DNA of 64,000 bases from an uncultured Candidatus Saccharibacteria bacterium (lineage in GTDB: Bacteria; Patescibacteriota; Minisyncoccia; Phycocordibacterales; UBA9973). Positions 22,795 through 64,000 of this stretch are shown here, one piece after another. How positions within the stretch are numbered: the first letter of the stretch is position 1; every line of letters starts with the position of its first letter. A program made the translations under genes and the position numbers. Below the pieces are notes generated by a model, which saw only the letters and a program-made list of their open reading frames with translations, was not told the origin of the DNA and made no database searches. The stretch lies in the NCBI GenBank assembly GCA_964606285.1, contig CAZSFP010000002.1, forward strand, positions 43,890-107,889, written 5' to 3'.

Positions 22795-22810
22795 AAACTA
22801 AAATCTAAGT

Positions 22811-39005: not shown

Positions 39006-39030
39006 CGATGAAATAGCTGCTCTTTTTAAT

Positions 39031-39068: not shown

Positions 39069-39077
39069 GCCAAATAC

Positions 39078-39106: not shown

Positions 39107-39112
39107 CTTTTT

Positions 39113-39195: not shown

Positions 39196-39207
39196 GGAAT
39201 AGAAAAC

Positions 39208-39236
39208 AAAAAAAGCCCTTTTTAAAGGGCTTTTTA
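39208..39236 (-). terminator. Terminator of the minus-strand gene 39241..39660 (AAAAAAAGCCCTTTttaAAGGGCTTTTT)
   Basis: Perfect 8-bp stem with A/T-runs. Confidence 0.6.
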
Positions 39237-39240
39237 TCAT

Positions 39241-39660
39241 TCAACTGTCTCTTTTAAATACTATCCGTTCGATATTTCCGGTGCTTATCATATACATGTA
39301 AAATTCCTGATCATGTTCGTTTGTGTAACGGATTGTTCCATATGAAATAGATTCACCTAAAAATATATGGTGATCTGTGGCAGAAATTCCTATATGTGTT
39401 GTGCCACCGTTGATAGTTGTTTTATTTTTTGAAATGTTTGAAACAATTTTTGTTTGTTCGTTGTCAGTATGTTTTTCTAGTGTAAAAAAAAGTTTCAACA
39501 TTGATAAAAGAAAATATTTTTCTTTTACTAGATAGTGAAATTCTATTTCGATAGGGTACATGCCGCAATCTTTCATTTTTTGAAATTTTTTATTCCAAAA
39601 TGTCACAGGATCATCTTTTGTGATTTTTTCTTGTATGGATATTTCAATATAATCAGGCAT
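39241..39660 (-). CDS. Hypothetical protein (AT-rich)
   Basis: 139-aa ORF with no recognisable motifs and low GC. Confidence 0.45.
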   Translation of the reverse strand: MPDYIEISIQEKITKDDPVTFWNKKFQKMKDCGMYPIEIEFHYLVKEKYFLLSMLKLFFTLEKHTDNEQTKIVSNISKNKTTINGGTTHIGISATDHHIFLGESISYGTIRYTNEHDQEFYMYMISTGNIERIVFKRDS

Positions 39661-39758
39661 AATAATTCAAGTATAAAGTTCATTTTCTCCTATACTACTC
39701 TTTTTTCTTCATTCGGCAATATCTCCCTTTTTTCTGGCACATATGCTATACTCGGGGC

Positions 39759-39890
39759 AGTGCAGTCTCTCTCTTCATGACCAGCGACTGCACTCACATA
39801 AAGCATTTGTGTTGGAGCTCGCACTCGCTGGTCTTGAAGAGAGAGAAATAAAAATAACCACATATGATGTGGTTATTTTTATTTTTATTG
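39759..39890 (+). ncRNA. Candidate structured sRNA or cis element with two mutually exclusive hairpins. It lies downstream of a TGcTATACT -10 (39744-39752) and ends in a bidirectional terminator.
   Basis: Hairpin A is GTGCAGTC(39760-67)…GACTGCAC(39786-93). Hairpin B is a 19-bp stem, TCTCTCTTCAtGACCAGCGA (39768-87) with TCGCTGGTCtTGAAGAGAGA (39825-44). The shared segment 39768-39785 cannot be in both. Terminator is AAAAATAACCACATatgATGTGGTTATTTTT (39849-39880). Confidence 0.35.
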
Positions 39891-39954
39891 AAAATATATT
39901 TTTTAATTATTTTTTATTTTCTGTTTGTAAAAAAATAAAAAATAATTTTTTGAG

Positions 39955-39963
39955 TTATCCACA
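39955..39963 (+). promoter_or_regulatory. Perfect DnaA-box consensus TTATCCACA inside a roughly 170-bp, more than 80 % AT stretch (39885-40060)
   Basis: Exact 9-mer match. Degenerate related 9-mers (ATAACCACA/TGTGGTTAT) lie at 39854-39875. No dnaA/dnaN is in the window. Confidence 0.3.
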
Positions 39964-40110
39964 CATGTGATGAAAAAAATATTGCATAATATTTGTTTCT
40001 CTATGATAATAGATATAGAAGGTTGTATCGAAAATTTACAAAAGTTTATTTATTAAATTTTTTGTTGGTCGCTCGATGCACATCTTTTAGAAATAATTTT
40101 CGTATATATT

Positions 40111-43695: not shown

Positions 43696-44228
43696 GTTAC
43701 CGGAGGGAAGAAGTAATTTTCGAAATAGTTTCTGAATTCTGTGATTTTCTTCCAGAACTTTTTCCGAAATCGTGTTTTCTTTTCTCTGTCGCATGTTGCC
43801 TGTATTGCATAGAAGAGTGCTTCTTCTTTGTCCAAGAATTGACTTTTTATTTGAGATAAAGTTTCAATTTCTTCAATGATGAGCGACTCATATTTCTTTT
43901 TTTCAGGATCAGAAACGTTTACCAGAGAAGAACGAGATGGTTGTATTTCACGACACATAGGAGAAATATCATCCATAAAGGATTCAAATGATTGCCATCT
44001 GTTGTGTATTTTGTTATCAGAAAAATGACACGCAAACACTTCTCTCATGGAAATCATAAAATAACTTGATTTTCTTATCGCGCCAATTTTTTTCTTTTTG
44101 TTATAGAGTCGGAGTACGCGTTTTGCTAATACATATGTTTCGTGAAATTTTAATTTTTCTAATTCTTCTCTTGTTTTTAGTTTTTTGGGACGAATTATCT
44201 TTTTCTTTTTGTGATAATATCTTGGCAT
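43674..44228 (-). CDS. Hypothetical basic protein (AT-rich)
   Basis: 184-aa ORF with a K/R-rich N-terminus and no recognisable domain. Confidence 0.4.
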   Translation of the reverse strand: MPRYYHKKKKIIRPKKLKTREELEKLKFHETYVLAKRVLRLYNKKKKIGAIRKSSYFMISMREVFACHFSDNKIHNRWQSFESFMDDISPMCREIQPSRSSLVNVSDPEKKKYESLIIEEIETLSQIKSQFLDKEEALFYAIQATCDREKKTRFRKKFWKKITEFRNYFENYFFPPVTQNPATM

Positions 44229-44356
44229 TTCAAGGAATATAAAAGTTTTCTTTATTCTACGCTATTTTATGGTAGTGTCAACAGCTTCACAATGTACATT
44301 GACTTTAGAGGAATGGTGGGGTAGTGTGCTGGTAAACAATGTAAAAATTCTGTTCT

Positions 44357-45136
44357 ATGAAACCTCGTTTAGAAAAAATTGTTGAAGACAATAAAACCAC
44401 TGAAATAAAAGTATTTTTTAGAAATTCACTTTTGTTTCTCATTCCTTTCATTCTCTGTAGTGTGATTGTATTTTTACTGATATTTTTTGATGTTTGGTAT
44501 ATAAATACAGGCACAGAATTTGCTCGATATATCATACTTCCCGTTTCTGCGGGTCTTGTTCTTGGTGTTATTTTTTGGGTTATGTTTCCAAAGACAACAA
44601 TAAGAAAAATAGAACCGATAGAGATGTGGGTAAACAAAGATTCTCATATCGTTTTTTATCCTCAAACAAGATATAAGATACCTTCAGATGTATTTAAAAA
44701 GGAATTTAAAAATGTTTGTTCCATCAGCCTTAACTCCAGAGCTTCACTTACTATAGACATATCGTTTCTCAGAGAAGCCGAAGAGGTGCGAAAATTGCTT
44801 TGTTCTGTTGAGATCAAATGGAATGGTAGCGGTGGAGACATGCAAAGATTTTTAGATGAAGAAAAAGAGATCATAAAAATGGGGTTATTGTTTGAAAAAC
44901 AGATACAGTATGATAGCCCACAAGAGATCGATGTTCTCACTCCGTTTCTTTATTATCATCTTCCTGAAATGAAGAATCAAAAGGGAAAAGAACTTGCGAA
45001 ATTGTACAATCCTTCCAGTGCAGAACAGCAAGAATTGTATCGTACAATTATTCGCGATTATTTTGATAGTTTAGGATATAGACTTGTTATCAATGGTTCT
45101 TTCGCTCTTCCGGGAGAGATATATACACCTTGGTAA
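44357..45136 (+). CDS. Hypothetical membrane protein
   Basis: 259 aa with two N-terminal TM helices and no recognisable domain. It is AT-rich. Confidence 0.45.
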   Translation: MKPRLEKIVEDNKTTEIKVFFRNSLLFLIPFILCSVIVFLLIFFDVWYINTGTEFARYIILPVSAGLVLGVIFWVMFPKTTIRKIEPIEMWVNKDSHIVFYPQTRYKIPSDVFKKEFKNVCSISLNSRASLTIDISFLREAEEVRKLLCSVEIKWNGSGGDMQRFLDEEKEIIKMGLLFEKQIQYDSPQEIDVLTPFLYYHLPEMKNQKGKELAKLYNPSSAEQQELYRTIIRDYFDSLGYRLVINGSFALPGEIYTPW

Positions 45137-50325: not shown

Positions 50326-52305
50326 ATGAAGCAAGACACTATTACTTATTTTGCAGAAACGGATTATCGTAACAAACGAACGCGTTTTGGTATCAAAGCG
50401 TCTGATCGGTCTCGTCATATGTATGTCATCGGAAAGACGGGTATGGGTAAATCGACTCTTTTGGAAAATATGGCCATTCAGGACATTCAGAATGGTGAAG
50501 GTATGGCGTTTATCGATCCGCACGGTGGCACCGTCGAAAAACTCCTCGATTATATTCCTGAGCATCGCATCCAAGACGTTGTTTATTTCGCACCGTTCGA
50601 TCTCGAATATCCGATGGCGTTCAATGTCATGGAAAATATCGGTGCTGACAAACGACACCTTGTTGCTTCAGGTCTCATGAGTACATTCAAAAAAATCTGG
50701 GTGGATGCATGGAGCGCCCGCATGGAATACATATTGAACAATACGATTCTTGCGTTGCTTGAATATCCGGAAGCGACCCTCATGGGTGTCAACAAAATGC
50801 TCTCGGATAAAGAATTTCGAAAAACTGTTCTCGAGCACGTGACTGACCCGTCAGTCAAATCTTTTTGGATAGATGAATTTGCGAAATATACCGAACGTAT
50901 GGCGCAAGAGGCTGTGCCTGCGATTCAAAACAAGATTGGTCAGTTTACTGCCAATCCACTCATTCGAAATATTATTTCCCAGCCGACATCATCATTTGAT
51001 ATTCGTGACATGATGGACAAGAAAAAAATACTTCTCATTAACTTGTCCAAGGGCCGGATCGGCGAACAAAACGCTGCACTCCTCGGTGGTATGCTTATCA
51101 CAAAGATTTATCTCGCAGCAATGTCGCGTGCTGATATATCTGCATCGACCCTTGAATCTTTGCCGTCATTTTATTTCTTTGTTGATGAATTCCAGTCTTT
51201 TGCCAGTGATAGTTTTGCGGATATTCTTTCTGAGGCCAGAAAATACAAGCTTGCGATGACGATTACTCACCAGTACGTCGAACAAATGGGAGACGAAGTC
51301 AAGGCGGCGGTGTTCGGTAACGTCGGTACCATGGTGATTTTCCGTGTAGGTTCGACTGATGCGGATATTTTTGAAAAAGAATTTGCCCCTGTGTTTACTG
51401 CTGAAGACATCGTAAATCTCGACAAACGGCAGATTTATCTCCGTCTCATGATTGATGGTGTCGGATCAAAACCATTTTCTGCCGTCACGTTGCCGCCGAT
51501 CCAGATCGCAGGTGGTGTATCGTTTCGTGAACAGGTTATTGCAGCATCACGACAACAATATACGACTGATCGAAAGATTGTTGAAGATAAAATCAAAATT
51601 TGGATTGAAGCGGGTCGCGATACAACTGAGAAGAAGCCTAAAAAGCCGTACGATCCTTCCTATGTGCCGAAATCGTATCAAGGTCAGCAAGGGACACAGT
51701 ATCAATCTCAGTCTCCATCGCAATCATCATATCAACAGCCACAGACACAACCATACAAAAAACCATTTGCGCCACGACCGTCTGGTCCGTCGCCGAAACT
51801 ACATGATCTTCTGCAAAAACTTGAAGCAGGAGATATTGTGCCAGTTGAAGATATACAGCCGGTAGTACAAAAAGAAATTGTAAAACCAGTCATTCCTCCG
51901 CCGCCGGTAGTCAATAAAATTCCAGCCGCGGAAGCAAAATCTCACTTCACTGAAGTTCGTCTACCGGACGGACAAGTTTCTCGGGATAAAGAAGAAAAAA
52001 ATATTTCGCACGCACCACATGGGTCACTTCGAGATGCTCCACTCAAACCACAAGGCCTCGCGCCAAAAATGGCGGCAAAAGTTACCGGCAAGAACAATGA
52101 TGTCTTGAAACAAGCACTTGCCCGAGCGCTTGAAAAAAAGGTCCTCCAACCAGCAGAAACGGTTTCATCGCAAGAATCAGTTGTATCAGCATCAAGTGCT
52201 GTTCCAGAAAAAAAAGAAGAACCTGTGCTACAGTCTCCACAGCAACAGTCACCACAAAAGAAACGAGAAGTACCTGAAGATGTATTGCGACGAATTCTTG
52301 AATAA
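50326..52305 (+). CDS. TraD/VirD4-like (T4SS coupling-protein family) ATPase, paralog 2, with Q/P-rich C-terminal low-complexity tail
   Basis: HMYVIGKTGMGKSTLLENMAIQDIQNGEGMAFIDPHG, ILLINLSKGRIGE, FFVDEFQSF and SEARKYKLAMTITHQY are collinear with the C-terminal half of ORF 12413..15136. Confidence 0.7.
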   Translation: MKQDTITYFAETDYRNKRTRFGIKASDRSRHMYVIGKTGMGKSTLLENMAIQDIQNGEGMAFIDPHGGTVEKLLDYIPEHRIQDVVYFAPFDLEYPMAFNVMENIGADKRHLVASGLMSTFKKIWVDAWSARMEYILNNTILALLEYPEATLMGVNKMLSDKEFRKTVLEHVTDPSVKSFWIDEFAKYTERMAQEAVPAIQNKIGQFTANPLIRNIISQPTSSFDIRDMMDKKKILLINLSKGRIGEQNAALLGGMLITKIYLAAMSRADISASTLESLPSFYFFVDEFQSFASDSFADILSEARKYKLAMTITHQYVEQMGDEVKAAVFGNVGTMVIFRVGSTDADIFEKEFAPVFTAEDIVNLDKRQIYLRLMIDGVGSKPFSAVTLPPIQIAGGVSFREQVIAASRQQYTTDRKIVEDKIKIWIEAGRDTTEKKPKKPYDPSYVPKSYQGQQGTQYQSQSPSQSSYQQPQTQPYKKPFAPRPSGPSPKLHDLLQKLEAGDIVPVEDIQPVVQKEIVKPVIPPPPVVNKIPAAEAKSHFTEVRLPDGQVSRDKEEKNISHAPHGSLRDAPLKPQGLAPKMAAKVTGKNNDVLKQALARALEKKVLQPAETVSSQESVVSASSAVPEKKEEPVLQSPQQQSPQKKREVPEDVLRRILE

Positions 52306-52316
52306 AATAAACTCGT

Positions 52317-53699
52317 ATGAAAAAGATTTTCCTTCTCAGTCTATCTTTTATATCAGTTCATGCTTGTCATGCTTCGGTCATGTTTTCTGAAATCATGTAT
52401 GATCTCGATGGTACTGATACGGATCGTGAATGGGTAGAAATTTATAACGGAGGATCTGACAGCATTGATCTGTCTACTTGGAAATTTTTTGAAGGAAATA
52501 CAAATCACAGTCTCGTTCCTGTAGACGGTAGTGGAACACTTGCTGCAAATACGTATGCAGTTATCGCTGATAAACCAGATACTTTTCGAATTGACTGGCC
52601 GAATTATTCTGGACTGTTGTTTGATTCAAGTTTTTCTCTAACTAATGATCCGGGTGAGACATTGTCACTCAAGGACGCAAGTCTTGCCGTTATTGATACG
52701 ATAACATATACGAATACCAGTGGTGCTCAAGGTGACGGAAATTCCTTGCAGAAAATGAACAGTATTTTGATATCAGCAGCACCTACTCCAGGTGCAGTAA
52801 ATAGTGCTGGTGATTCAGGGGGAGGTGATTCATCACTGGCTGATAGTAGTGGATCTATAGCACCTGCTCCCAAAATCATAGAATCGACAGTCTCTAAAAT
52901 ACAAACTGATATCATCGTACCGCAGACGATTTTTTCCGGCATTTCATTTCAATGTAAAACAAAAACAATCGGTTTTGCATCTGAGAATAGAAATCACGGT
53001 TCGTGGATATGGTCATTTGGTGATGGAAACGCAATTGAGCAAAAAACAAATGATCCATTTTCTTGTATGTATGAATATCCTGGGACATATGTGATGACAC
53101 TTGCGTATAGAACAAATCCATATCTTCCGGAACCCGATGCGACGGACCGTGTTCTTGTTACGGTGGTTGCACCAGATTTGGTTATTTCATCACTGTTGCC
53201 TGACGGGGGAGTAGTACTCAAAAATATGTCGTCGAAAGAAATCGATGTTTCAGGTTGGAAAATAACACGAGGTGCAACAGTGTTTGTATTTCCATCAACA
53301 ACTATTTTTCTTCCAAACAAAGAACTGACTATTAGTCAAAAACATTCTCATCTCTCAACTGATATTCCTGTAACACTTTTCAATCCCGCTGGTGATAGTA
53401 TTTCGATATTTCCCACACCTGTTGTCTCGAAATTTTCTTCAGGTGTTTCATCTACTGTTCGTACTACTTCTCCATCGTCTTCGAGAGTATATACACCTAT
53501 TGCACCAGAAACAGCAGAGAAAAAAGACGGTGCATTGCTCGCGAGTGTCGCAGCTGTACCGGCTGCAAAAAAACCCTGGAAAGCAGTTTTACCGTTTGCT
53601 GGATTTGCGCTTGTCTCTGGTCTCGGTGGTTATACGTGGTGGCGGTACTCAAGACCTCCAAAGGTGGAAGATGAGGATGACTATGAAATAGTTGAATAA
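52317..53699 (+). CDS. Secreted, C-terminally membrane-anchored protein with lamin-tail-domain (LTD)-like repeats
   Basis: Signal peptide. FSEIMYDLDGTDTDREWVEIYNGGSDSIDLSTWKF resembles the LTD motif (SEI…EWIEL.N…DLSGW). A second LTD-like block is …KNMSSKEIDVSGWKITRG…. C-terminal TM is VLPFAGFALVSGLGGYTWW. Confidence 0.5.
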   Translation: MKKIFLLSLSFISVHACHASVMFSEIMYDLDGTDTDREWVEIYNGGSDSIDLSTWKFFEGNTNHSLVPVDGSGTLAANTYAVIADKPDTFRIDWPNYSGLLFDSSFSLTNDPGETLSLKDASLAVIDTITYTNTSGAQGDGNSLQKMNSILISAAPTPGAVNSAGDSGGGDSSLADSSGSIAPAPKIIESTVSKIQTDIIVPQTIFSGISFQCKTKTIGFASENRNHGSWIWSFGDGNAIEQKTNDPFSCMYEYPGTYVMTLAYRTNPYLPEPDATDRVLVTVVAPDLVISSLLPDGGVVLKNMSSKEIDVSGWKITRGATVFVFPSTTIFLPNKELTISQKHSHLSTDIPVTLFNPAGDSISIFPTPVVSKFSSGVSSTVRTTSPSSSRVYTPIAPETAEKKDGALLASVAAVPAAKKPWKAVLPFAGFALVSGLGGYTWWRYSRPPKVEDEDDYEIVE

Positions 53700-53735
53700 T
53701 AAAAACTCTGTGGTCACAGAGTTTTTATTATTTAT
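53700..53735. terminator. Bidirectional terminator (AAAAACTCTGTGgtCACAGAGTTTTT)
   Basis: Perfect 10-bp stem between convergent genes. Confidence 0.65.
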
Positions 53736-54436
53736 CGGACGGTATTTGTAAAGTTAAATGACACAGACGTATTGTCTTTTATCGTTATAATCTTTTCTGT
53801 ATTTGTTCTGATATTTCCGATTGGTGGGAGAATGATAGTATAGGATCCATTAACAAGTGTTGTTTCAAATGTACCTGATGGATTGATAGTGACAGAAGTT
53901 ATTGCACCGGTTGAGGATCTGATAGATGCGGACATGTTTTCAAAGACATACAGTGGACACTCACCTTTATGTGTTGCTTCACAGACATTTGTTACTGTAA
54001 TAACTCCCGTAAGTGTGTGTGATGCTACAGCTGGGGTACTGTTGGTCATGGTGTCATTTCCTCCGGATGTTGTTTGTTCTCCTGTTGTGTCAGGAATTTT
54101 TGCCGCAGGTTCCATGAAGGTTGTCGATTCTATTTGAGTAGAAGAAACAGTTTCAAGAGGGATCGGTTCTATCAACATAGATTTGAAAGGATAGAGCGTA
54201 TCACCGGGATTTGCTTTTGTTGCAAAAAATGTCAAGCCGCTTGTTGCAATAACGAGACCAAGTGTGAGAAAAACCGCACCTTCGAGTAACTTGCTCGTAT
54301 ACCATGGCGAACGAATAGGGGCGCTCACTGGGTGTTTGGCGACGAACATCGAAATCTGCGCGCGTATGCGTGATTTTTCTTCAGCGGTCATGCTGATGTT
54401 TTTTAGTTCTTTGATTGTTTCGTTGAAGTTGTTCAT
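53732..54436 (-). CDS. Putative anti-sigma factor (single-TM membrane protein) co-transcribed with the ECF sigma factor
   Basis: 234 aa with a cytoplasmic N-terminal helix (…MTAEEKSRIRAQI…) and a TM segment (AVFLTLGLVIATSGLTFF). Its start overlaps the upstream sigma-factor stop (ATGA). Confidence 0.5.
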   Translation of the reverse strand: MNNFNETIKELKNISMTAEEKSRIRAQISMFVAKHPVSAPIRSPWYTSKLLEGAVFLTLGLVIATSGLTFFATKANPGDTLYPFKSMLIEPIPLETVSSTQIESTTFMEPAAKIPDTTGEQTTSGGNDTMTNSTPAVASHTLTGVITVTNVCEATHKGECPLYVFENMSASIRSSTGAITSVTINPSGTFETTLVNGSYTIILPPIGNIRTNTEKIITIKDNTSVSFNFTNTVR

Positions 54437-54963
54437 AGAGGTTCTGGAACGTCGCTACCGAGCACTGTTTTCAATTTCTCGAGACCGCGATGGATTTTGA
54501 CTGATGTGGCGTTCTCACTGGCACCAGTGATCTCAGCTATTTCTTTGATTGAGAGATCATCAATATATCGAAGCGTCAGGACATCGCGATATTTCTCATC
54601 AAGAGTTGATAGTGCATCGCGAGCACGCGTGGCATCAAAGATCGTTTCGTGCCGTTCTGTGACATCAACAGAATCTTTGATGTCAAACGTTTCTACTTCG
54701 AGCATCGCATCGAGAGAATAGGATTTTTTCTTGCGACGGTAATCAATGATCAGATTGGTCGCGACTTTGTATAAAAAGGGACGGATCTGATCAACTTTTT
54801 TGCCAGCAGAGAGATATTCCCATGTTTTCGTAAATGTGTCCTGTGCGAGATCGAGTGCGAGCTGGTGGTCGCTCGTCTGAATTTTGCAGTAGCGAAAAAT
54901 AGCATCCGCATACATCTCGTATGCTTCGAGGAATTCTGTCTCGATGTGTTGCCCGGTTGTCAT
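54433..54963 (-). CDS. RNA polymerase ECF-type sigma-70 factor
   Basis: Sigma-2 (…FLYKVATNLIIDYRRKKK…) and sigma-4 (…LTLRYIDDLSIKEIAEITGASENATSVKIHRG…) regions. Start taken at MTTGQ (54963) inside the longer ORF. Confidence 0.8.
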   Translation of the reverse strand: MTTGQHIETEFLEAYEMYADAIFRYCKIQTSDHQLALDLAQDTFTKTWEYLSAGKKVDQIRPFLYKVATNLIIDYRRKKKSYSLDAMLEVETFDIKDSVDVTERHETIFDATRARDALSTLDEKYRDVLTLRYIDDLSIKEIAEITGASENATSVKIHRGLEKLKTVLGSDVPEPL

Positions 54964-55338
54964 GTTGCTTTGATATAGAGACGGAAGACATAGTGTCTTC
55001 TTACAAGGTAAGTATACGAATTTTAGCCTGATAAGAAAAGGGGAAAACAAACAAGCCCGGCTATTTAGCACGGGCTGTTTTTCTTTCTTTCTTTTGTTCA
55101 AAATGCATTTGAAGGAGAACACATCCTGCGATGACTGCGAAGCCAAGTATAGAAGTGATAATCCCCGTTTTCATGTCAGTAACATCTGTGTGAATAAATG
55201 AAGAAAGAATGTCGATAAATTTTGATTTCATTTTTTTATTTTTTTGTTCGTTTCACCTAATATGACGACACATATTTGCATATCTTACAAGGTTTAGAAA
55301 ACCTTTTAAAAATAAGGGTTATATGGCATACTTGGGTC

Positions 55339-56562
55339 ATGCAGCAGAAAAAGAAGGTTGTTATCGTCGGTGGCGGATTTGGTGGTATACGTACCGCCCG
55401 CGCACTTGATCGTTACCGAGATAGTCTCGATGTTATTCTTATTTCTGACAAAACATACTTTGAATATTATCCCGCATTGTATCGCCTCGTCACTGGTGCA
55501 TCACCGATCGAGGCCTGTGTATCACTCGAAGAAATGCTCTCTGGTACCGAGACATTAATCGTGCATGACAAGATCGTCTCAGTCGATAGTACACAAAAAT
55601 CTTGTACGGGAGCAAGTGGGGAAACATATCATGGTGATGCACTCGTACTTGCGCTTGGTAGTCAAACCGCATACTTCAATATTCCCGGACTTCCTGATCT
55701 TTCGTTTGGTTTCAAATCAGTCCACGAAGCACTTGAACTTAAAAAACATCTGCATGATTTATTTGTTTCCTGCAAAGATTCTCTGAAAGACGAATTGGTC
55801 TCTCATTTTCATGTTGTTATCGTCGGTGGCGGCGCATCTGGTGTTGAAGTTGCAGGTGATATGTCAGCGTTCCTTAAAAAAATTGCAAAGAAACACAATG
55901 TGACGCCGTCGTTCGTAACGATTGATATTGTTGAGGCTGCACCGCGACTGATCGCACAAATGCCGGAGAAAGTTTCAGGTCGTATCGAGGCACGACTTCG
56001 AAAAAATGGCGTGAATATATTTCTCAACCGCGCCCTTGTTCGCGAAGAAGTCGAAGGGGTCTATATGAAAGACATGTCGCTCGATGCAAAGACAGTGATT
56101 TGGACCGCGGGAACAGAAGTTAATCCGCTTTATAAAACTATCAGTGGTTTTTCTTTCAATCAAAAAGGCCGTGTCCTCGTCAATGAATATCTGGAAGCAA
56201 AAAACATTTCTGGGGTTTATATCGTCGGAGATGGGGCAGATACGCCGTATACTGGTCTTGCTCAAACTGCGATCCATAATGCGGATTTTGTCGCAAAAGA
56301 CATCGGACGAATACTTGTTGGAAACAAAAAACGATCTGTCTATGAACCTCGAAAAACAGCATTTGTCATTCCTGTGGGGGACGATTGGGCAATTTTTTCA
56401 TATAAACAATTCATGTTTTCTGGTTGGTTTGCATATCTCCTTCGTCATGTTGTTGATTTTCAATTCTTTGCTCGAACCGTTTCGATTTCAACATTATTCG
56501 CTATATTTTTTCGTGGATGGAAATATCGTTCCATCGATGAAGACTGTCCACTATGCCGATAA
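55339..56562 (+). CDS. ndh: Type II NADH dehydrogenase (NDH-2, FAD-dependent pyridine nucleotide-disulfide oxidoreductase)
   Basis: Two GxGxxG dinucleotide folds (VVIVGGGFGG; VVIVGGGASG) and an NDH-2-like C-terminal membrane-anchor region. Confidence 0.8.
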   Translation: MQQKKKVVIVGGGFGGIRTARALDRYRDSLDVILISDKTYFEYYPALYRLVTGASPIEACVSLEEMLSGTETLIVHDKIVSVDSTQKSCTGASGETYHGDALVLALGSQTAYFNIPGLPDLSFGFKSVHEALELKKHLHDLFVSCKDSLKDELVSHFHVVIVGGGASGVEVAGDMSAFLKKIAKKHNVTPSFVTIDIVEAAPRLIAQMPEKVSGRIEARLRKNGVNIFLNRALVREEVEGVYMKDMSLDAKTVIWTAGTEVNPLYKTISGFSFNQKGRVLVNEYLEAKNISGVYIVGDGADTPYTGLAQTAIHNADFVAKDIGRILVGNKKRSVYEPRKTAFVIPVGDDWAIFSYKQFMFSGWFAYLLRHVVDFQFFARTVSISTLFAIFFRGWKYRSIDEDCPLCR

Positions 56563-57329
56563 AAAAACCAACAACCTGGAGTGCTGTTGCGCCGTGGTAT
56601 GACACACTGCTTGAAGGCAGTGCTGACACGTATCAGAGTGCAGTTATCGCACCGAATCTGCTTCGCGTGCTTGATCTCAAAAAAGGGGACAAAGTACTCG
56701 ACCTCGCGTGTGGTCAGGGATTTTTTAGTCGATTGCTTCATGATGCCGGTGCACGCGTGACCGGTGCTGACATATCCGCTGAGTTGATCGCCATCGCCAA
56801 AGAACGTTCACCAAAAGACATATCTTACAAAATTTCTCCATCGCATTCGTTGCCATTTATGACTGACTTGGGGCAAGACGCAGTGCTCATCGTGCTAGCT
56901 CTCGAAAATATCAAGGATGTTGCCGGAACGCTTGTCGAAGCATCCCGCGTACTTCTTCCAAATGGTCACATCTCGATCGTACTTATGCATCCGGCATTTC
57001 GTATTCCTCGCGACAGTGGGTGGATGTATGATGCACCAACACAGAAACAAATGCGCACTATCTCATCGTATCTCTCTGAGAAAGAATACGAGATCGTCAT
57101 GAATCCCGGAGAAACGAATAAAAACAAACAAGTCAAAACCATTTCCTATCACCGATCACTCCAGTGGTACATGAAAACATTTCGCAAGGCCGGTCTCGCC
57201 ATCACTCGTCTCGAAGAATGGATATCTCACAAAGAATCAGGCAAGGGTCCGCGCAAAGCGACTGAGGATACTGCTCGCAAAGAAATACCTATGTTTCTCT
57301 ATGTAGAATTGGTAAAAATCACAAAATAA
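56553..57329 (+). CDS. Class I SAM-dependent methyltransferase
   Basis: Motif I VLDLACGQGFFS and motif post-I; 258 aa. Confidence 0.7.
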   Translation: MPIKKPTTWSAVAPWYDTLLEGSADTYQSAVIAPNLLRVLDLKKGDKVLDLACGQGFFSRLLHDAGARVTGADISAELIAIAKERSPKDISYKISPSHSLPFMTDLGQDAVLIVLALENIKDVAGTLVEASRVLLPNGHISIVLMHPAFRIPRDSGWMYDAPTQKQMRTISSYLSEKEYEIVMNPGETNKNKQVKTISYHRSLQWYMKTFRKAGLAITRLEEWISHKESGKGPRKATEDTARKEIPMFLYVELVKITK

Positions 57330-57456
57330 CCCTTTGTTTTCAATGGTTCTATACCATTGACTTTGTGTATAAATATGCTATAATTATACCGAGGCAGAAT
57401 TACTCTGCAATCGTGTACCGGCATTTCCGGAGTCCTTTAAAAAAACTTAAAAAAGT

Positions 57457-58245
57457 ATGGGACAGAAACAAGAAGAAAGAACAAATCAAATTCTTTCAAA
57501 CACAGAAACAGACGGTCGCATATCGTCCGGAAAAATATATGCGTGTGGATTTCCAATTTTATTTTCTGACAGAGAACTTTTCTGTTGGGGGGTGAAAAAC
57601 AATTTCAAAGGGCAGATATGCTCCAAGGGAGTTGGGTCAACAGCAACTCCTGCGGATCAACCAGGTTCAGCTTTTGAAAGAAATTTGGCGCACCTCATGC
57701 AGCTGGCTGGATTCAATCATTCAGAAAGATCTACCCTCCTGAAAGTATTCAATTTTCAGTTGGAAAAAAATGTTCCAGAAAGGAAAATTCCTTTCTGTAC
57801 CATGGTGCGTGCGTTCATGGAAAAAACCGGAACATATCCGGTACGGTTTCTCAATCCCTTCAAGGGAGATGGTGGCGTGTTTAACCCAAACAGGGCACCA
57901 AAACCGGATCAGTTTTTTTATCCAGTGCTGAGTGTTGTTATCCCACACGGGGATGACACCAAAGTAACAGATGTGAGTAATCTCCGATTGCTTACCCAGG
58001 GAAGTGATCTGCAACGGGATAACTTTGACCCGACAGCATCGGACCCAGACTGGAGAGGGATATGGACCGGAAAAAATCTCGAGAACATCGAGAGAAGTAT
58101 GACTCTGAGTCATATCGACCCATTCAAAAAAAGTTTAGAAGTGATGAAGATTCACTTTAAAGAACTGCAGGAAAATGTAGGGGATGCAAAAAGATATGAG
58201 TATTATAATACTCGAGTAAAACTTTTACAGAAACTTTTGTCCTAA
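57457..58245 (+). CDS. Hypothetical protein with atypical (AGA/AGG/GGA) codon usage and its own consensus promoter TTGACT-N17-TATAAT (57350-57379)
   Basis: 262-aa ORF with no recognisable domain. Its codon usage differs from the core genes. Confidence 0.4.
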   Translation: MGQKQEERTNQILSNTETDGRISSGKIYACGFPILFSDRELFCWGVKNNFKGQICSKGVGSTATPADQPGSAFERNLAHLMQLAGFNHSERSTLLKVFNFQLEKNVPERKIPFCTMVRAFMEKTGTYPVRFLNPFKGDGGVFNPNRAPKPDQFFYPVLSVVIPHGDDTKVTDVSNLRLLTQGSDLQRDNFDPTASDPDWRGIWTGKNLENIERSMTLSHIDPFKKSLEVMKIHFKELQENVGDAKRYEYYNTRVKLLQKLLS

Positions 58246-58456
58246 CAATCAAAGTAAAACCGCACAATCTATCGATGTTGATATCGACAGCGCTTGTGCG
58301 GTTTTTTTATTGTAACAAAACCAGAATAAGGCCGTCTGTATAAGGGAAATAGGGGTTTTTTAGGTATTGACTTTTCATACACAATATGATACAATATTCC
58401 CAAAGGAGGTAACTCCATCGCGCACCGCGAAACTGTGCTTTTTAAAAAACATTAAA

Positions 58457-59242
58457 ATGAAATATATTTTAATCATAGTTCTTGCAATTGTTGTCGGTCT
58501 TACTTCATGTAAACCCGCAAAAGAAGTTTCAAAAGCTGAATCAAAAAAAACTGAAAAGAAAAAAGAAACAAAACAACAGGATACTTTAACCATGAGTGTT
58601 GGAACAATAGAAAAATATGTTCTTGACGCAGAAAAGATGAAAAGTATGCAATATTACCTGAAGGGAAATATTGAGCTGTACTCAAAAAATCCTGCTGATA
58701 CACTCAGTGTGTCACTTTCATCGAAGGTTGATGAAAGTGGAAAATTATTGGTTGGGAAGAAAGGAAATACTCCCGATATAGTGATTCCGAGTGGAACACC
58801 TTGTATCGTGGCAAGTGTTGAAGGTATAGATATATTTGTGCAGTTTTCGACAGATAAAGAAAAGCAGATAAAATTTATGCCACATCTTACTGATAGTATT
58901 TATTATCCTCTTGGAAAATTAAGTAAAAAGATTTACTACGGAGGACAGGTAATGTACATCTCAGAAGAAAGTTTGAATGCACGTTTTGTTTTTTTGAAAG
59001 ATAATTTACCACAGACCAGTAATTCACAAACAGAAAGTGGAGTAACTATTTTTCAAAAAGATGCTCTTCCGGAGGGTTCTGGAGTTCAAAAAAAATCTGG
59101 AAACAATGGAGAGTTTGGAAATTTTTCAATTCCCGGCAGTTCGGGTCAACAACAAACGCAACAAGAACAAAAACAGGAAACAAAACCTGCGAATCAAAAT
59201 CAACAACCAAAGAAAGGAGCGGATCGCTTCGATCTTCCTTGA
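58457..59242 (+). CDS. Lipoprotein (hypothetical) with Q/N/K-rich C-terminal tail
   Basis: MKYILIIVLAIVVGLTSC is a signal peptide plus an LTSC lipobox. Start corrected to 58457. Confidence 0.6.
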   Translation: MKYILIIVLAIVVGLTSCKPAKEVSKAESKKTEKKKETKQQDTLTMSVGTIEKYVLDAEKMKSMQYYLKGNIELYSKNPADTLSVSLSSKVDESGKLLVGKKGNTPDIVIPSGTPCIVASVEGIDIFVQFSTDKEKQIKFMPHLTDSIYYPLGKLSKKIYYGGQVMYISEESLNARFVFLKDNLPQTSNSQTESGVTIFQKDALPEGSGVQKKSGNNGEFGNFSIPGSSGQQQTQQEQKQETKPANQNQQPKKGADRFDLP

Positions 59243-59261
59243 TGATGATTCATCAAATAAA

Positions 59262-59292
59262 AAATCCCCGCACAATCGTGGGGATTTTTTTT
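59262..59292. terminator. Bidirectional terminator (AAAAAATCCCCGCACAatcGTGGGGATTTTTTTT)
   Basis: GC stem with A/T-runs. Confidence 0.65.
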
Positions 59293-59310
59293 ATTGTATA
59301 GGTGTTCTCT

Positions 59311-59334
59311 CCCTCTCCTAGTCTAGGAGAAGGG
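59311..59334. repeat. REP-like palindrome CCCTCTCCTAGTCTAGGAGAAGGG (copy 3)
   Basis: Same motif as 17843-17865 and 17933-17955, again between convergent gene ends. Confidence 0.6.
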
Positions 59335-59341
59335 AATGCTT

Positions 59342-60115
59342 TTACAATACAAATACGAGAAATAAGATACCCACAACAATCCGATAAATGCCGAATGGAA
59401 TAAACGTATGATTGGATATGAACCGCAAGAGCCAGCGCATGGCGATATAGGCAACGATTGCCGCAGTGACAGCTCCGATACAGAGAAGCAGCCACTCGTG
59501 TGCTGTAAATGAAAAACCTGTTTTCAGGAGGTCGAGTCCGGTGGCGGCGCCGAGTGTTGGGATAGCGAGGAGAAATGAAAAATAGACGAGGCTCTTTCGT
59601 CCGATACCAATCAATCGTCCGCCAATGATTGTCGCACCTGAACGGGAAATACCGGGGATGAGAGCTATAGATTGGAAGAGACCAAGGAGAAATGACTGTT
59701 TGTAGGAAATGTCGCCAATTGATCGATCCTCAGGAAGTGACACATTTTCTTTTTTGAACCATTCGACGAGGATCATGATGATACCGCCGATAATGAGTGC
59801 CCAGGCAACGATCGCGGGATTATCGAGAAATTGTTTGACGTATTTGTATGCGAGGAGACCGATGATCGCAGTTGGTAGGAAGGCGATAGCAATTTTTTTG
59901 TATATTTCAACATTGTTCCAAATATCTTTTATCGCGAGAGCAAGAACAGAAATGATCGCGCCGCCTTGAATCACGATTTCAAATGTTTTTAAAAATTCTG
60001 TTGATTCGAGTCCGAGTAGATTACTCGCGAGAATTAAGTGTCCAGTCGAAGAGATGGGGAGGAATTCCGTGATTCCTTCAACGATACCGAGAATGATGGC
60101 GTGGAGGATGGTCAT
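59342..60115 (-). CDS. uppP: Undecaprenyl-diphosphatase (BacA/UppP)
   Basis: 257 aa, 8-TM protein, …EGITEFLPISSTGHL…PGISRSGATI… match UppP motifs. Confidence 0.9.
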   Translation of the reverse strand: MTILHAIILGIVEGITEFLPISSTGHLILASNLLGLESTEFLKTFEIVIQGGAIISVLALAIKDIWNNVEIYKKIAIAFLPTAIIGLLAYKYVKQFLDNPAIVAWALIIGGIIMILVEWFKKENVSLPEDRSIGDISYKQSFLLGLFQSIALIPGISRSGATIIGGRLIGIGRKSLVYFSFLLAIPTLGAATGLDLLKTGFSFTAHEWLLLCIGAVTAAIVAYIAMRWLLRFISNHTFIPFGIYRIVVGILFLVFVL

Positions 60116-60117
60116 GG

Positions 60118-60807
60118 TTAGTTGTTGACCGCATAATACGTGCCGATGATAGCTGCAGTTTCACCACGAAGTACGGTTGGCGCGAGATGGATAAATGTTG
60201 CGCCATGTTTCTCTGCAAGCGCACGTTCCTTGTCAGTCCAACCACCTTCGGGTCCGACAAAAATTGCTTTATTTCCCGGTTTTTTCACTACATCTTTTTC
60301 CTCGGTGATTGTATCGCAAAATAGTATTTCTGTGTCTTTAGAAATACATGCAAATGCATCTTTGAGTGACATGATGTCATGAATTGTCGGAATATAAGCA
60401 CGGCCGGATTGTTCGGCTGCGTTGCGGGCGATCTTGTCCAATCGGTCGAGACGAATACCTGTTTTGATTGTTCGGTCAGTAAGAAGTGGTGTGAAATCAG
60501 TAATCCCGAGCTCGGTTGCTTTTTCGAGGGCGTATTCGGTATGTTCGCGTTTGAGCATGCCTAAAAATAGGTGAATTGTATGTGGTTGTTCATTTTTGTT
60601 TCGGCGTTTCTCAAGTATTTCGATGATAGGAATATCACCGATTCGGGTCATGGTTCCGTCGTATTCGAATCCGTCACCATTGAAGAGAATCACTCGTTCG
60701 TGAATCTTTATTCGAACGACATGGATATGATCAATCGCGACCGTGTCGACGATCGTGTTGGTGCCGAGGGCGAGATTTTGTTTGCAGAAAAATCGGTGAA
60801 TTTTCAT
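60118..60807 (-). CDS. rsmE: 16S rRNA (uracil1498-N3)-methyltransferase RsmE
   Basis: PUA-like N-terminal domain plus …AIFVGPEGGWTDKE… SPOUT motif. Start taken at MKIHRFF. Confidence 0.75.
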   Translation of the reverse strand: MKIHRFFCKQNLALGTNTIVDTVAIDHIHVVRIKIHERVILFNGDGFEYDGTMTRIGDIPIIEILEKRRNKNEQPHTIHLFLGMLKREHTEYALEKATELGITDFTPLLTDRTIKTGIRLDRLDKIARNAAEQSGRAYIPTIHDIMSLKDAFACISKDTEILFCDTITEEKDVVKKPGNKAIFVGPEGGWTDKERALAEKHGATFIHLAPTVLRGETAAIIGTYYAVNN

Positions 60808-60851
60808 GATATAGCCAGAATACCACATTTTTGTTATGATGATATCTTCAT

Positions 60852-61244
60852 ATGAAATTGCTCGACAAAACATATTATGCCGTCAAACGTTCCTCTGCGG
60901 GCTTAGGCATTTTTGCTCAAAAGGATATACCAAAAGGTGAACGGATCATCGAATATGTTGGCCCTATGTTGACTGCTGCGCAAGCTGATGAAAAGGGTGG
61001 GCAGTACCTTTTTGAGATCAGTAGTCGACGGACGATCGATGGTGCGACACGTAAAAATACTGCACGATATATTAATCATTCCTGCGCGCCAAATGCAGAT
61101 GCGTTTATCGAAGGTTCCCGTGTCTTTATCTATGCAAAGCGATTGATCAAAGCAGGGGAGGAGATATCGTACAATTACGGTAAAGATTTTTTCAATGAAT
61201 ACATCAAACCGAAAGGTTGCCGGTGTGTGAAATGTAAAGACTAG
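60852..61244 (+). CDS. SET-domain protein (putative protein-lysine N-methyltransferase)
   Basis: …RYINHSCAPNA…GEEISYNYG… are SET motifs, with a C-terminal Cys cluster CRCVKC (post-SET-like); 130 aa. Confidence 0.75.
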   Translation: MKLLDKTYYAVKRSSAGLGIFAQKDIPKGERIIEYVGPMLTAAQADEKGGQYLFEISSRRTIDGATRKNTARYINHSCAPNADAFIEGSRVFIYAKRLIKAGEEISYNYGKDFFNEYIKPKGCRCVKCKD

Positions 61245-61298
61245 ACCTTTTGCCTTTTTCACATCTTTTTGATAGGATATGTGAGTTCTTGTAGACAT

Positions 61299-61325
61299 GC
61301 TCCCCAGATAGGGATCGAACCTTGG
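61299..61325 (-). pseudogene. Degenerate inverted copy of the tRNA-Asn 3' end (T-arm + acceptor; 21 of 27 positions identical)
   Basis: Minus-strand reading is CCAAGGTTCGATCCCTATCTGGGGAGC, against the tRNA 3' end CCTAGGTTCGAGCCCTAGCCGAGGAGC. There is no matching 5' half. Confidence 0.35.
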
Positions 61326-61360
61326 AGAGTACAAAATAATACAAAAAAACAATTTACCAT

Positions 61361-61436
61361 TCCTCGGTAGCTCAGTTGGTAGAGCGCCTCCCTGTTAAGG
61401 AGGATGTCCTAGGTTCGAGCCCTAGCCGAGGAGCCA
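61361..61436 (+). tRNA. tRNA-Asn (anticodon GTT), CCA encoded
   Basis: Acceptor TCCTCGG/CCGAGGA, D-arm GCTCAGTTGGTAGAGC, anticodon stem-loop CCTCC-CTGTTAA-GGAGG, T-arm GGTTCGAGCCC, discriminator G, then CCA. Confidence 0.9.
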
Positions 61437-62936
61437 GTTAGGACTACTAGCTAGTTCTAGTACTAAATTGAACGGAGAAGCTATTGAAAAATATAGCTTT
61501 TTTCCGTTTACAGTCGGGTTCTGAAGTATATAGTTCAAAAATGCTCTTTTCTCAGCAGGTTCAGAACTATTCTCAAAAATGGTCTTTGCTCTGCGTGCTA
61601 CAGAAATGACTGTAGCAACGGTTGTTTGGTAGTCGTAATCAGCTTTTCTGTGTTCAGAAAGTTCAATTTCCAGTGTCTGCATTTTGTCCTGATACTCTTG
61701 ATGCTTTTTGTCATAGATGTCCTTAGTAATACTCTGGTCTAAGAATGCTTCAAGAAGTCGATCAGTTTTTCCTTTAACATTGTCGTAGTCAGTTCTTATA
61801 CGATTTATTTGTGCTTTATGAAAAACAACTTCTGCTTCAGTGTTCTTTCGTAGTTCGTCAACAAGACCATTCTGAGTTTCCTCAGTGATACTCTCAAATC
61901 GCTCCAAGACCTCATAAATGGGCTTCAGAAGCTCTAGTTCGTTCACATAGACCCTTTCACATATCTTCTTGGAATTGGTACAAGAACCGATTACATACTG
62001 CTTACCACTGGGCTTTAGCTTATGCTCAAATGAGATGGCACATCCGCAGTTATGACACTTCAAAAGTCCTTTGAATATAAAGTCCTTGGAATGTGCCTTA
62101 GAGGGCATTTTCTTGCGTTTTGAGCGTATTTCTTGGCACTTATCGAAGAGTTCCCTTGAAATCAATCGGGGATACTTATGAGCATAAGAGCCATACTTCT
62201 TTGACATAGCAACACCACAGTAAAAACTATCCTTGAGTATATTTTCTATACAACTTTTTGACAGCTTAAAGCCCTTGATACTTCTTAGTCCAAGTTCTGT
62301 CATTTCTATTCGTATGGTTTCAAGTGAGTGATTTCCTGTTGCATAAAGCTCAAACATTTTTGTAATAAGATGACCTCTTTCAGGGTCAATAATGATGTCC
62401 TTACGCAGTCGCTTTTCAGCGTCTAGTTGAACATTCAGATAACCCAAACGAACAGCTCCTGTCCATTCGCCATTTCTTCGCTTTTGTTCAAATGCTCGTC
62501 TTACATTGTCGCCAATCGCATCAGAATAGTATTTAGCCAAACCCAAGCTCATACCAAACTGGAACTTTTCTACAGCCGACATCTGGCTGTTTATGATTTG
62601 ACCCTCTGAAACGAAATGAAGCTCAATTTTGTCAGCTACGGCAAGTTCATAAAGCCGAGCAACTCGTTTATCAAAAACACTTCTTGAAAGACGGTCTACC
62701 TTATCAAAGCAGACCGCAATCTTTTCTTTCTTCATTACTCCTTCAACAAACTCAAGAAGTTTATCGAACTCATCTCGCTTTTCTTTGTAGGCACTTTCAT
62801 CAAAGCTATACGACTTTACGACGTCAAAAGATTTCTTAGAACAGTAACTTCTAATACGCTCTGTCTGAGCAGGTAAAGAGTTACCAGCTTCCTTTTGTTC
62901 TTCAGTTGATACTCGTGATACGTCTATAGCTTTCAT
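61422..62936 (-). mobile_element. Large serine recombinase (resolvase domain, recombinase domain and zinc ribbon). Its 3' end overlaps the tRNA-Asn 3' end, so it is the probable integrase of an island integrated at tRNA-Asn.
   Basis: IDVSRVSTEEQ catalytic Ser and DKVDRLSRS. The recombinase domain is followed by a Cys cluster (CHNCGCA…CTNSKKIC). 504 aa. GC is about 38 % with AGA/TTA codon usage, unlike the core genes. Confidence 0.85.
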
Positions 62937-62939
62937 AGG

Positions 62940-64000
62940 TTATAAATCGTACGAAGTTTTTAGTCGCTTTTCTTTATTGTGTCGTTCAATAGCAAGTTGA
63001 ATTAACTTATCAATTAACTCTGTATACGATATACCGCTAGCTTCCCATAATTTTGGATACATACTAATTTTAGTAAATCCTGGAATGGTGTTTACCTCAT
63101 TGATAATCACTTCTTTACCGTCACGCAAAAACATATCTACTCTAGCCATACCTTCAAGACAAAGGGCTTTAAAAGCTTTGATTGCAACTTGTTGTACTTC
63201 TTCCATTAATTCAGCGGGTAGTTTTGCAGGTATTTCTAATAGAGCACCATTTTCGTCAATATATTTTGCTTGGTAAGAATAAAATTCGTGATTAGGAATA
63301 ATTCTACCTGCGACTGAAGCAATAGGGTTTTCGTTTCCCAGGATAGAACATTCGACTTCATCGCCAACTATTGCTTCTTCTACCAAGATTTTATTGTCGT
63401 ATTCAAATGCTATTTTTATGGCTGTTTCTAACTCTTCTTTAGTATTTGCTTTACTTACACCCACTGAAGAACCTAAGTTAGCGGGCTTTGTAAAAATAGG
63501 CAAACCTAACTGTTCAATTATTTTATCTAAATCAATATCAGAAGAAGTGTCTAAACATATAAAGTCCGCTATAGGCACTCCTGCACCTTTAAGAAGTCGC
63601 TTCATTACATCTTTGTCCATACCAACCGCAGAACCTAACACTCCTGCCCCAACGAATGGTACATCTAAAAGCTTTAGTAATCCCTGAACTGTACCGTCCT
63701 CACCAAATGGTCCGTGCAAAACTGGAAATGCGACATCAATTGGTTTCTCAGGCACATCATTAGATAGCGTAACTAGTTGCTGGCTTGATTGACCTGGAAC
63801 TAAAGCTACTTCTTTACTATTTTCCTTATTTAGTTTTATTAACTTTGGGTTATTGTCGTTAAGCAGGTACTGAGACGCAGTATTGAGTTGCCACTTTCCC
63901 GTCTTATCAATCCCAATTGGAACTATTTCATACTTGTCCTTATCAATTGCATCAATGATATTTTTAGCAGATTGAAGTGAAACTTCGTGTTCTGCCGACT
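62940..64000 (-). CDS. ddl: D-alanine--D-alanine ligase (N-terminus beyond window end), low-GC and island-like
   Basis: …[41 protein letters not shown]…. The reading frame stays open upstream of the ORF-track start (GTG at 63753), through …[39 protein letters not shown]… to the window edge. Confidence 0.85.
   Translation of the reverse strand, partial: [352 protein letters not shown]

Follow-up and report, generated by a model that had tools for sequence, protein, structure and literature searches.

The recombinase gene at the tRNA-Asn 3' end

The stretch analysed here (the window) comprises 64,000 nucleotides from an uncultured Candidatus Saccharibacteria bacterium (contig CAZSFP010000002.1, positions 43,890 to 107,889), and at its right end an intact tRNA-Asn(GTT) gene meets, on the opposite strand, the gene of a large serine recombinase (LSR) and a neighbouring ddl gene (Table 1). 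An earlier reading of the letters alone, here called the original prediction, had described this end as a low-GC island inserted at the 3' end of the tRNA gene and driven by a recombinase whose last codons overlap the tRNA. It is this island, as a putative integrative element of Patescibacteria, that is described below.

The 504-amino-acid (aa) open reading frame (ORF) was assigned to the LSRs because it contains Resolvase (PF00239, 1.1e-20, residues 7-158), Recombinase (PF07508, 5.9e-14) and zinc-ribbon domains and matches the PHROG integrase family phrog_95 at 6e-71. The zinc-ribbon match (Zn_ribbon_recom, PF13408; 1.8e-4, 22.2 bits) falls just under the cut-off of 25.3, the same domain is precomputed for most of the LSR homologues, and a CxxC...C...C pattern is visible in the translation. 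The N-terminus, MKAIDVSRVSTEEQ, has Ser10 in an R-V-S context as the nucleophilic serine. Scores with the NCBIfam XisF and Ccr models were far under their cut-offs, and identity to named LSRs was low. Judging from its domains, the protein would catalyse recombination between the attachment sites of an element (attP) and of its host (attB).

The last five codons of the gene, TGG CTC CTC GGC TAG (W L L G stop), reproduce the tRNA end ...CTAGCCGAGGAGCCA in reverse complement, an overlap of 15 nt. The element encodes the protein through Trp500, and the L-L-G and the stop are supplied by the tRNA gene; conversely, the CA at 61435-61436 that completes the encoded CCA of the tRNA stems from the element side. 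An exact look-up of the window LSR protein returned no record, which is consistent with a junction-specific 3' end.

Table 1. Features at the right end of the window
Feature	Position	Strand	Basis
tRNA-Asn(GTT), intact	61361-61436	+	ARAGORN; Rfam tRNA 69.2 bits
Inverted degenerate tRNA-Asn-like 3' end, ATGCTCCCCAGATAGGGATCGAACCTTGGAGAG	61297-61329	+	weight matrix; 31 nt upstream of tRNA
Bacterial half-site (B' arm) of former attB, the tRNA 3' part	~61404-61434	+	arm conserved over 75 distinct junctions
Core GGAGC (GCTCC on element strand; tRNA positions 70-74)	61430-61434		minimal core common to both junctions, 40 loci
P arm of attP, the last element-encoded LSR codons (...LELASSPNW)	61435-61466	-	DNA-level conservation across family
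LSR, integrated form, 504 aa	61422-62936	-	Pfam, PHROG integrase
ddl (D-alanine--D-alanine ligase)	62940-64000, start at window-equivalent 64040	-	Pfam, NCBIfam, Logan contig L082

We found that a syntenic relative with an identical tRNA (L168) shares 78-83% DNA identity with window positions 52045-61434, and that homology ends at 61434, inside the GGAGC core. Past the point of divergence L168 carries another LSR, 26% identical to the window LSR, and other cargo; at least two LSR lineages therefore use the same tRNA end, and everything to the right of the tRNA is variable. The claims of an island at this tRNA end and of a recombinase running into the tRNA are thus borne out, and the original prediction was not only correct but understated. 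The second LSR lineage (L168 10577-12130, L014 18143-19561, L142 3057-4610) terminates with ...CTVVLLG and a stop, its last codons overlapping the tRNA-Asn 3' end; it likewise uses the GCTCC core and does not supply the CCA.

The change in codon usage that had been described for the island is clear. Specifically, TTA makes up 42% of the Leu codons in ddl and 6% in 35 core ORFs, CTC 3-9% on the island versus 38% in core ORFs, and AGA 31-43% of the Arg codons on the island versus 10%. The drop in GC content, also described, is real but modest (0.379 in 61437-64000 versus 0.419 in the remaining window), and it is unconvincing by itself because 6.6% of host windows of the same size are equally low. 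Three patches elsewhere in the window (39001-40000, 44001-45000 and 21001-23000) have GC contents of 0.31-0.36, lower than the island itself, and the ORFs in them (39241-39660, 44357-45136 and 21361-22794), which lie amid core genes, gave no meaningful family matches.

Logan short-read contigs of the same strain end at the tRNA (L001 at 61407, L002 at 61351), and those of the relatives L169 and L170 likewise end inside or just before it. Such breaks, in the strain and in its relatives, suggest that several alternative continuations, either different elements or an empty site, exist in the populations.

Attachment site and the exchanged LSR tail

A direct repeat of the tRNA 3' end had been predicted at the distal boundary. 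Within 10 kb, however, the loci searched were essentially devoid of a 24-nt copy of the tRNA 3' end in either orientation, an upstream copy with at least 19 matches being found in 1 of 45 loci, and the two junctions have only 5-7 bp in common; in relatives the boundary is marked instead by an orphan fragment of an LSR 3' end. A tyrosine-integrase-type island would have a long distal direct repeat and a tyrosine integrase, but the integrase here is a serine recombinase, and the near-absence of the repeat led us to consider a model in which attP lies within an ORF.

LSRs without an adjacent tRNA run 25-36 codons beyond the conserved ...PNW (for example WLPLVDEFRTANWTRIKSDLQFSGILSLFPQMSLQN), and integrated copies stop 0-13 codons past Trp500, in arbitrary residues encoded by the tRNA. 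The junctions of integrated elements have the forms LSR body-GCTCC-tRNA and host flank-GCTCC-tail, and this layout, with GCTCC shared by the two, places attP inside the LSR reading frame. Since in most loci GCTCC is the only sequence common to both junctions of integrated relatives, it was taken as the crossover region. The P arm has the consensus TTAGTACTAGAACTAGCTGATAGTCCTAACTG, with 0.8-1.5 bits per nt. Read from these natural junctions, integration is shown to swap the last 30-36 residues of the LSR for tRNA-encoded codons, which in the window are L-L-G and a stop. In the free element the window LSR would be about 531-536 aa long; the full-length relatives in L084 and L085, whose LSR is 95% identical to that of the window, have C-terminal tails such as WLAVVDEFRTANWTRIESDLQFSGILQLFPMFELQN.

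The tRNA remains intact after integration, and the TGG (Trp) codon of the element furnishes its encoded CCA. Many distal junctions read xTGCTCC instead of TGGCTCC (for example, L010 4803, L019 2509 and L100 396). Unoccupied tRNA-Asn genes may accordingly lack an encoded CCA, which the element's TGG would create upon integration.

About 60 loci have orphan tail-coding fragments with no LSR body, which share the strand of the integrated LSR and lie 5.1-10.5 kb (median 8.0 kb) upstream of it. The pattern expected of such a fragment is GCTCC, 7-9 nt, GGAC and then TTCAGAAC. The sequence ahead of the fragments is typically host-like, T-rich or terminator-like, and the host flank is unconserved. When all loci were scanned with a motif, 23 of 64 orphan tails were found to retain the stop at codon 37, and the ratio of nonsynonymous to synonymous polymorphism (pN/pS) beyond the att site was about 0.44; the conserved stop and this ratio indicate that the tail is a maintained coding sequence. 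At the protein level conservation (WLPLVDEFRTANWT.IKSELQFSGIL..FP..LQN) extends well past the approximately 25 bp needed for an att arm.

Several orphan tails may lie upstream of a single integrated element, as in L120 (six, between 8 and 6461), L077 (four) and L020, L022, L055 and L069 (two each), and these arrays look like the debris of successive insertions at the same tRNA, that is, of accretion. At least two loci, L014 and L103, are tandem arrays, with one LSR body running into the tail of an adjacent element, and the tail in L014 is explained by a second LSR adjoining the tRNA. When the tail-bearing loci L014, L016, L040 and L046 were compared with themselves by BLAST, no useful flanking repeats emerged.

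The arms of the att sites could be compared by counting positions from the G of GCTCC. GTCC occupies -10 to -7 in the LSR-side arm and GGAC +12 to +15 in the tail-side arm, a dyad that places the centre between T2 and C3 of the core, i.e. at TC on the element strand; in the tRNA arm, too, +12 to +15 are occupied by such a motif, GG[AG]N. In addition, 74 of 75 tRNA arms have GAAC, here the T-loop, at +18, and 66 of 74 tail (P') arms have it at +23. For a Listeria phage integrase it has been described that the inner motif stays in place and that the motif of the zinc-ribbon domain is 5 bp closer to the centre in attB than it is in attP (PMC3783163), and the sites of the present family show the same 5-bp shift. 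The host-flank arm of attB shows almost no constraint (0.06-0.5 bits per nt); recognition of attB therefore probably rests on the tRNA half, which would also explain the tandem arrays.

Homologues of the LSR number more than 1500, many at 73-95% identity, and about 160 loci were fetched, 79 from species-representative genomes and 80 from metagenomes. Among 86 relatives with at least 70% identity and a readable 3' junction, 63 adjoin tRNA-Asn (43 of them on the opposite strand of an ordinary gene, 20 at an intron-containing one), two adjoin tRNA-Gln and 21 read on into the longer C-terminal tail; 11 further close relatives run to a contig end. In more distant relatives (29-55% identity) the adjoining gene is tRNA-Asn, Gln, His, Arg, Ser or Pro; with tRNA-Gln, Asp or Ser as target, the core matches that tRNA's own 3' end. 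The DNA similarity of the window to its closest loci is limited to the tRNA and the LSR, which are 77-88% identical across genomes. Record titles name Nomura-, Kaiser-, Pacei-, Morani-, Uhr-, Gracili-, Peri-, Ryan-, Harrison- and Dojkabacteria among the patescibacterial phyla, and the few metagenome-assembled genomes (MAGs) with the LSR that are labelled otherwise may reflect mis-binning.

The introns of the interrupted tRNA-Asn(GUU) genes are group I introns in the anticodon loop (Rfam RF00028, 57-79 bits), confirmed in the six loci tested, all on the minus strand: L006 3480-3735, L069 10811-11050, L092 1860-2145, L098 1687-1983, L132 5054-5346 and L010 11549-11790. Their sequence signature recurs in about 27 of the patescibacterial loci that were fetched. 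One of the metagenome contigs holding an element, L132, also has a LOOT RNA (Rfam RF03000, 77.8 bits) at 1034-1154 on the minus strand.

Circular forms, backbone and cargo

Mobility of the family can be read from three cases. An exact 123-nt terminal overlap makes L091 a circle of 8858 bp with an LSR of 531 aa; L084 and L085, which stem from two assemblies, represent a single 8016-bp molecule in circular permutation; and L103 and L104 have 7982 bp in common at 99.1% identity, bounded by both cores and set in unrelated flanks. The marks of an integrative element are thus divided, the exact break in synteny being seen for the window against L168, and the circle and the changed flanks in relatives only.

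The exact Ddl (P0121) and g379 (P0241) proteins matched only one sequence, a 4.6-kb Logan contig of the same strain (L082), position 2217 of which corresponds to window 64000, so that the sequence is extended by 2.2 kb. The order in L082 is g90 (partial), g55, g379, g99, a 59-aa HTH_17 protein, a 21-nt gap, ddl, a 3-nt gap and the LSR; the backbone genes upstream of ddl (window-equivalent about 64062-66214) are kept in most loci searched. The HTH_17 protein has a Pfam match of 2.7e-11 and matches PHROG excisionase families. The g379 protein has the features of a Rep_trans fold, but its own match to Rep_trans (PF02486) lies under the threshold, weak Pfam matches being found in 5 of 54 family members (best E-value 1.1e-4). 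Across 129 diverse sequences of the g379 family Y181 and K183 are invariant and D182 nearly so, Y181 being a candidate catalytic tyrosine, and this putative nickase forms about 1070 clusters at 50% identity. Searches of g379, g99, g55 and g90 against Pfam, PHROG and NCBIfam found nothing significant, and profile searches of PDB sequences gave no match at E<=1 and only two insignificant ones at E<=10.

Between the HTH_17 gene and the LSR gene lies a cargo slot, which in 105 loci was empty in 19 and otherwise 0.5-6.7 kb long. The biggest clusters of cargo proteins consist of DNA methylases (N6/N4 and C5), type III restriction subunits and enzymes of the Eco57I/MmeI-like, CfrBI and Mrr kinds, and the circular L091 carries an HpaII-type restriction-modification pair. 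In the window this slot contains ddl, ending 3 nt upstream of the LSR start codon. The Ddl protein has Dala_Dala_lig_N (1e-32) and Dala_Dala_lig_C (3e-72) domains and reaches 535.9 bits with the NCBIfam equivalog NF002525 (cut-off 457). Models of Van-type ligases were rejected, with scores of 340 against a cut-off of 495 for VanG, 302 against 550 for the generic D-Ala-D-Lac ligase and 250 against 775 for VanA. The original prediction had held that ddl runs beyond the window and that its listed GTG start is an artefact; the full protein in P0121 (100% identical) has 366 aa and 40 nt of the gene lie past the window end, so this start is indeed an effect of the window edge.

The gene had also been called foreign, which agrees with its position between the backbone genes HTH_17 and LSR and with the absence of a counterpart in the same slot of about 105 other elements, in which comparison ddl forms a cluster of its own. 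It adjoins an LSR in none of the 79 genome loci searched. A tblastn search of the window revealed no ddl other than the copy at 62940-64000. The homologues closest to it, at 67-73% identity, belong to chromosomes and have no such element around them, and the few with a source name are labelled KSB1, WOR-3, Yanofskybacteria and Firmicutes. Taken together, the family assignments and homologues support a bona fide D-Ala-D-Ala ligase that was probably acquired from elsewhere. It is the only gene seen in the slot that concerns the cell wall and not defence, and one may ask whether the element supplies, duplicates or replaces an essential function.

An inverted fragment of the tRNA 3' end, predicted to be either a scar of an earlier integration or a partner site, was found to be real. 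With a weight matrix derived from 66 distinct 3' arms of patescibacterial tRNA-Asn it scored 15.9 bits; in the window only the tRNA itself scored higher (43.5), the next site had -6.0, and none of 200 Markov (resampled-dinucleotide) randomisations reached this score. The spacing of its acceptor and T-arm is of the tRNA (attB) type, not of the tail-arm type, and its acceptor differs from that of the resident tRNA at three of seven positions. No similar inverted copy was found in the other LSR-bearing loci scanned, and the fragment is thus not recurrent in the family; it is lineage-specific, since the relative L170 has a short spacer between the SET-domain gene and the tRNA without it. Compared with window 61245-61360, the same spacer in L168 (10394-10515) and L169 shows a 21-nt duplication, AACCAATATTCCTCGGTAGCT (spacer plus tRNA 5' end), around a 34-nt insert containing GCTCCGGTGCGAATC, a rearrangement that L170 likewise lacks. 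The spacer is evidently a hotspot for tRNA-derived debris, and the fragment may be a scar, the decayed remnant of a second tRNA gene or a secondary site.

The other 61 kb of the window encode ordinary core functions, such as TruB, SmpB with transfer-messenger RNA (tmRNA), FtsH, DnaE, UppP, RsmE and the SET-domain protein. The tmRNA gene (20471-20857, minus strand) has a long predicted tag, ANAFRSGVKSPYFGMANFAFARV, and directly adjoins smpB (20860-21303); no integrase or island was seen beside it.

Interpretation, alternatives and relation to known systems

We consider it likely, with a probability of roughly 0.8, that the letters from 61435 to the end of the window make up the proximal part of an integrated element roughly 8 kb long, belonging to a family that has a circular form and carries attP in its LSR gene. 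The family order would be far junction, orphan LSR tail, small ORFs, g280, g55, g379 (a Rep_trans-fold nickase), g99, HTH_17, cargo slot, LSR and tRNA-Asn. Integration would proceed by a standard serine-integrase exchange between attP and attB at the central TC, the (T)TC(A)GAAC motif, which in attB is the tRNA T-loop, lying 5 bp nearer the centre than in attP and the GGAC-like motif staying fixed. Excision would rebuild the full-length LSR gene, and the Rep_trans-fold protein may replicate or mobilise the circle by nicking. The cargo slot would normally hold restriction-modification genes, instead of which the window copy holds ddl. Patescibacteria thus apparently harbour a large and undescribed family of serine-integrase elements that target tRNA ends; in the literature searched, we found no described mobile-element family for Patescibacteria.

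Several points weigh against this interpretation. The size and intactness of the window copy are extrapolated from relatives, as the far junction, expected about 5-10.5 kb from the tRNA, would lie beyond both the window and the 2.2 kb added by L082, and the join between host flank and element is given by the submitted assembly only, because the short-read contigs break in the tRNA. About a quarter of the close LSR copies with a 'full-length' gene sit in large chromosomal contigs, and a fused tail does not always represent a free attP, because in the L014 and L103 arrays the tail comes from a neighbour. The assignment of motifs to protein domains and the TC central dinucleotide are predictions derived from symmetry, not from observed recombination, and it is a guess that the HTH_17 protein acts as the directionality factor. 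Finally, the literature in which we found no description of the element family, nor of a serine integrase with attP in its own gene, was open-access text only.

The significance of the overlap between attP and the LSR gene may be viewed in two ways. It is quite possible, though short of an even chance, that the overlap reflects genome compaction with no regulatory meaning and that the tail is dispensable, in keeping with the arbitrary residues in which integrated copies end, 0-13 codons past Trp500, and with the position of all recognised domains upstream of the tail. The tail protein, however, is conserved beyond the need of an att arm, with the stop kept in 23 of 64 cases and a pN/pS of about 0.44. 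We also raise, as a speculation that may well prove wrong, that with attP inside its gene the LSR C-terminus reports the state of the element, being a conserved tail of about 33 aa in the free form and tail-less, with tRNA-encoded last residues, in the integrated form, and that the tail swap acts as a switch of activity, directionality or stability. If so, only the full-length LSR may, for example, be integration-proficient and the truncated one excision-proficient or stabilised, which would be a serine-integrase counterpart of integration-dependent regulation.

It is unlikely that the junction is an assembly chimera, in which a real element of another patescibacterium was joined through the conserved tRNA-Asn/LSR 3' end. 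The Logan contigs of the strain and its relatives do stop within or shortly ahead of the tRNA, L168 has an identical tRNA, and the LSR and tRNA keep 77-88% DNA identity across genomes. However, the junction has the exact family structure (P arm, GCTCC, tRNA), its acceptor stem TCCTCGG is the host lineage's own, as in L168 to L170, and the samples SRR16481186/7 contain both the host flank and the element at 100% identity; even a chimera would change the host assignment and not the identity of the element.

A small prophage or phage satellite, in place of a plasmid-like integrative element, seems very improbable. LSRs are typical phage integrases (phrog_95), the size is like that of filamentous phages, and one member of the g379 family has a weak Phage_CRI match. 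However, the PHROG matches in L082 and L091 are limited to the helix-turn-helix protein, the LSR, a methylase and a weak terminase-like match (1.2e-4, a 129-aa ORF of L091), apart from which no phage structural genes were found; no Zot-type ATPase or coat gene was seen among the L091 ORFs, and a scan of IMG/VR with LSR peptide patterns revealed no relative. Least credible, and largely refuted, is a fixed, domesticated recombinase beside tRNA-Asn with a native core ddl and no mobile island, since the 3-nt spacer between LSR and ddl, the modest GC drop and the wide, conserved occurrence of the LSR in Patescibacteria are outweighed by the end of synteny at the tRNA 3' end with another LSR (26%) and cargo in L168, by the absence of ddl beside the LSR in all 79 genome loci, by circular copies, by a 99.1% identical element in unrelated flanks, and by LSRs 85-87% identical in MAGs labelled as different candidate phyla.

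An integrated element with attP in its integrase gene, the interpretation we favour, has consequences beyond this locus. The family clearly documents that large serine integrases can use tRNA genes, and its layout is unusual in that integration rewrites the integrase gene itself. From its abundance, its spread over many candidate phyla and its mostly restriction-modification cargo, it is probably a major route of gene flow and defence turnover in Patescibacteria (Candidate Phyla Radiation), organisms with tiny genomes. Because the att sites are legible from many natural junctions, the system is immediately testable and may be useful as an integration tool; if attB indeed combines a near-universal tRNA half-site with an unconstrained second half-site, these LSRs would be candidate tools for Patescibacteria.

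Use of tRNA genes by serine integrases was called unreported and in need of proof in a 2020 survey, in which it concerned 14 of 297 cases (PMC7192596), and a large survey of LSRs makes no mention of tRNA (Mageeney et al. 2022). In streptococci, serine integrases target and disrupt protein-coding genes, and tRNA sites are used by tyrosine integrases. Streptococcal integrative mobilizable elements, with relaxases related to rolling-circle initiators, and plasmids of the pT181 family with RepD are among the closest known systems; in the present family g379 stays under the Rep_trans threshold and the hosts are Patescibacteria. Among the Prochlorococcus tycheposons, 27 of 937 encode a large serine recombinase and most have tyrosine recombinases (bioRxiv 10.1101/2020.12.28.424599). 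The tycheposons differ from the present family in backbone and hosts, and in the passages considered attP is not described as lying in the integrase gene.

The LSRs of phages and of integrative and conjugative elements (Listeria A118/LI, phiC31, Bxb1, SPbeta SprA and SCCmec Ccr) have the same order of Resolvase, Recombinase and zinc ribbon as the window LSR, and with them the family shares short att sites, a small common core and a fixed motif combined with a 5-bp-shifted one. Unlike in those systems, the target is formed by the last bases of a tRNA, attP lies in the integrase gene and the host-flank half of the site is unconserved. The SSV1-type integrases are tyrosine recombinases of archaeal viruses with attP in the int gene, which is split by integration into a tRNA gene and restored by excision. 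The present family resembles them in having the att site in the integrase frame, a tRNA target and a gene that is split on integration, whereas it differs in that the enzyme is a serine recombinase and that, instead of large parts being separated, only the C-terminal tail is exchanged and all known domains are kept. In the mycobacteriophages BPs and Brujita, which have a tyrosine integrase, attP lies in the repressor gene, and integration shortens the protein C-terminally and alters its properties. The present family shares with these phages the placement of attP in a coding sequence, the difference being that here the protein shortened is the integrase itself.

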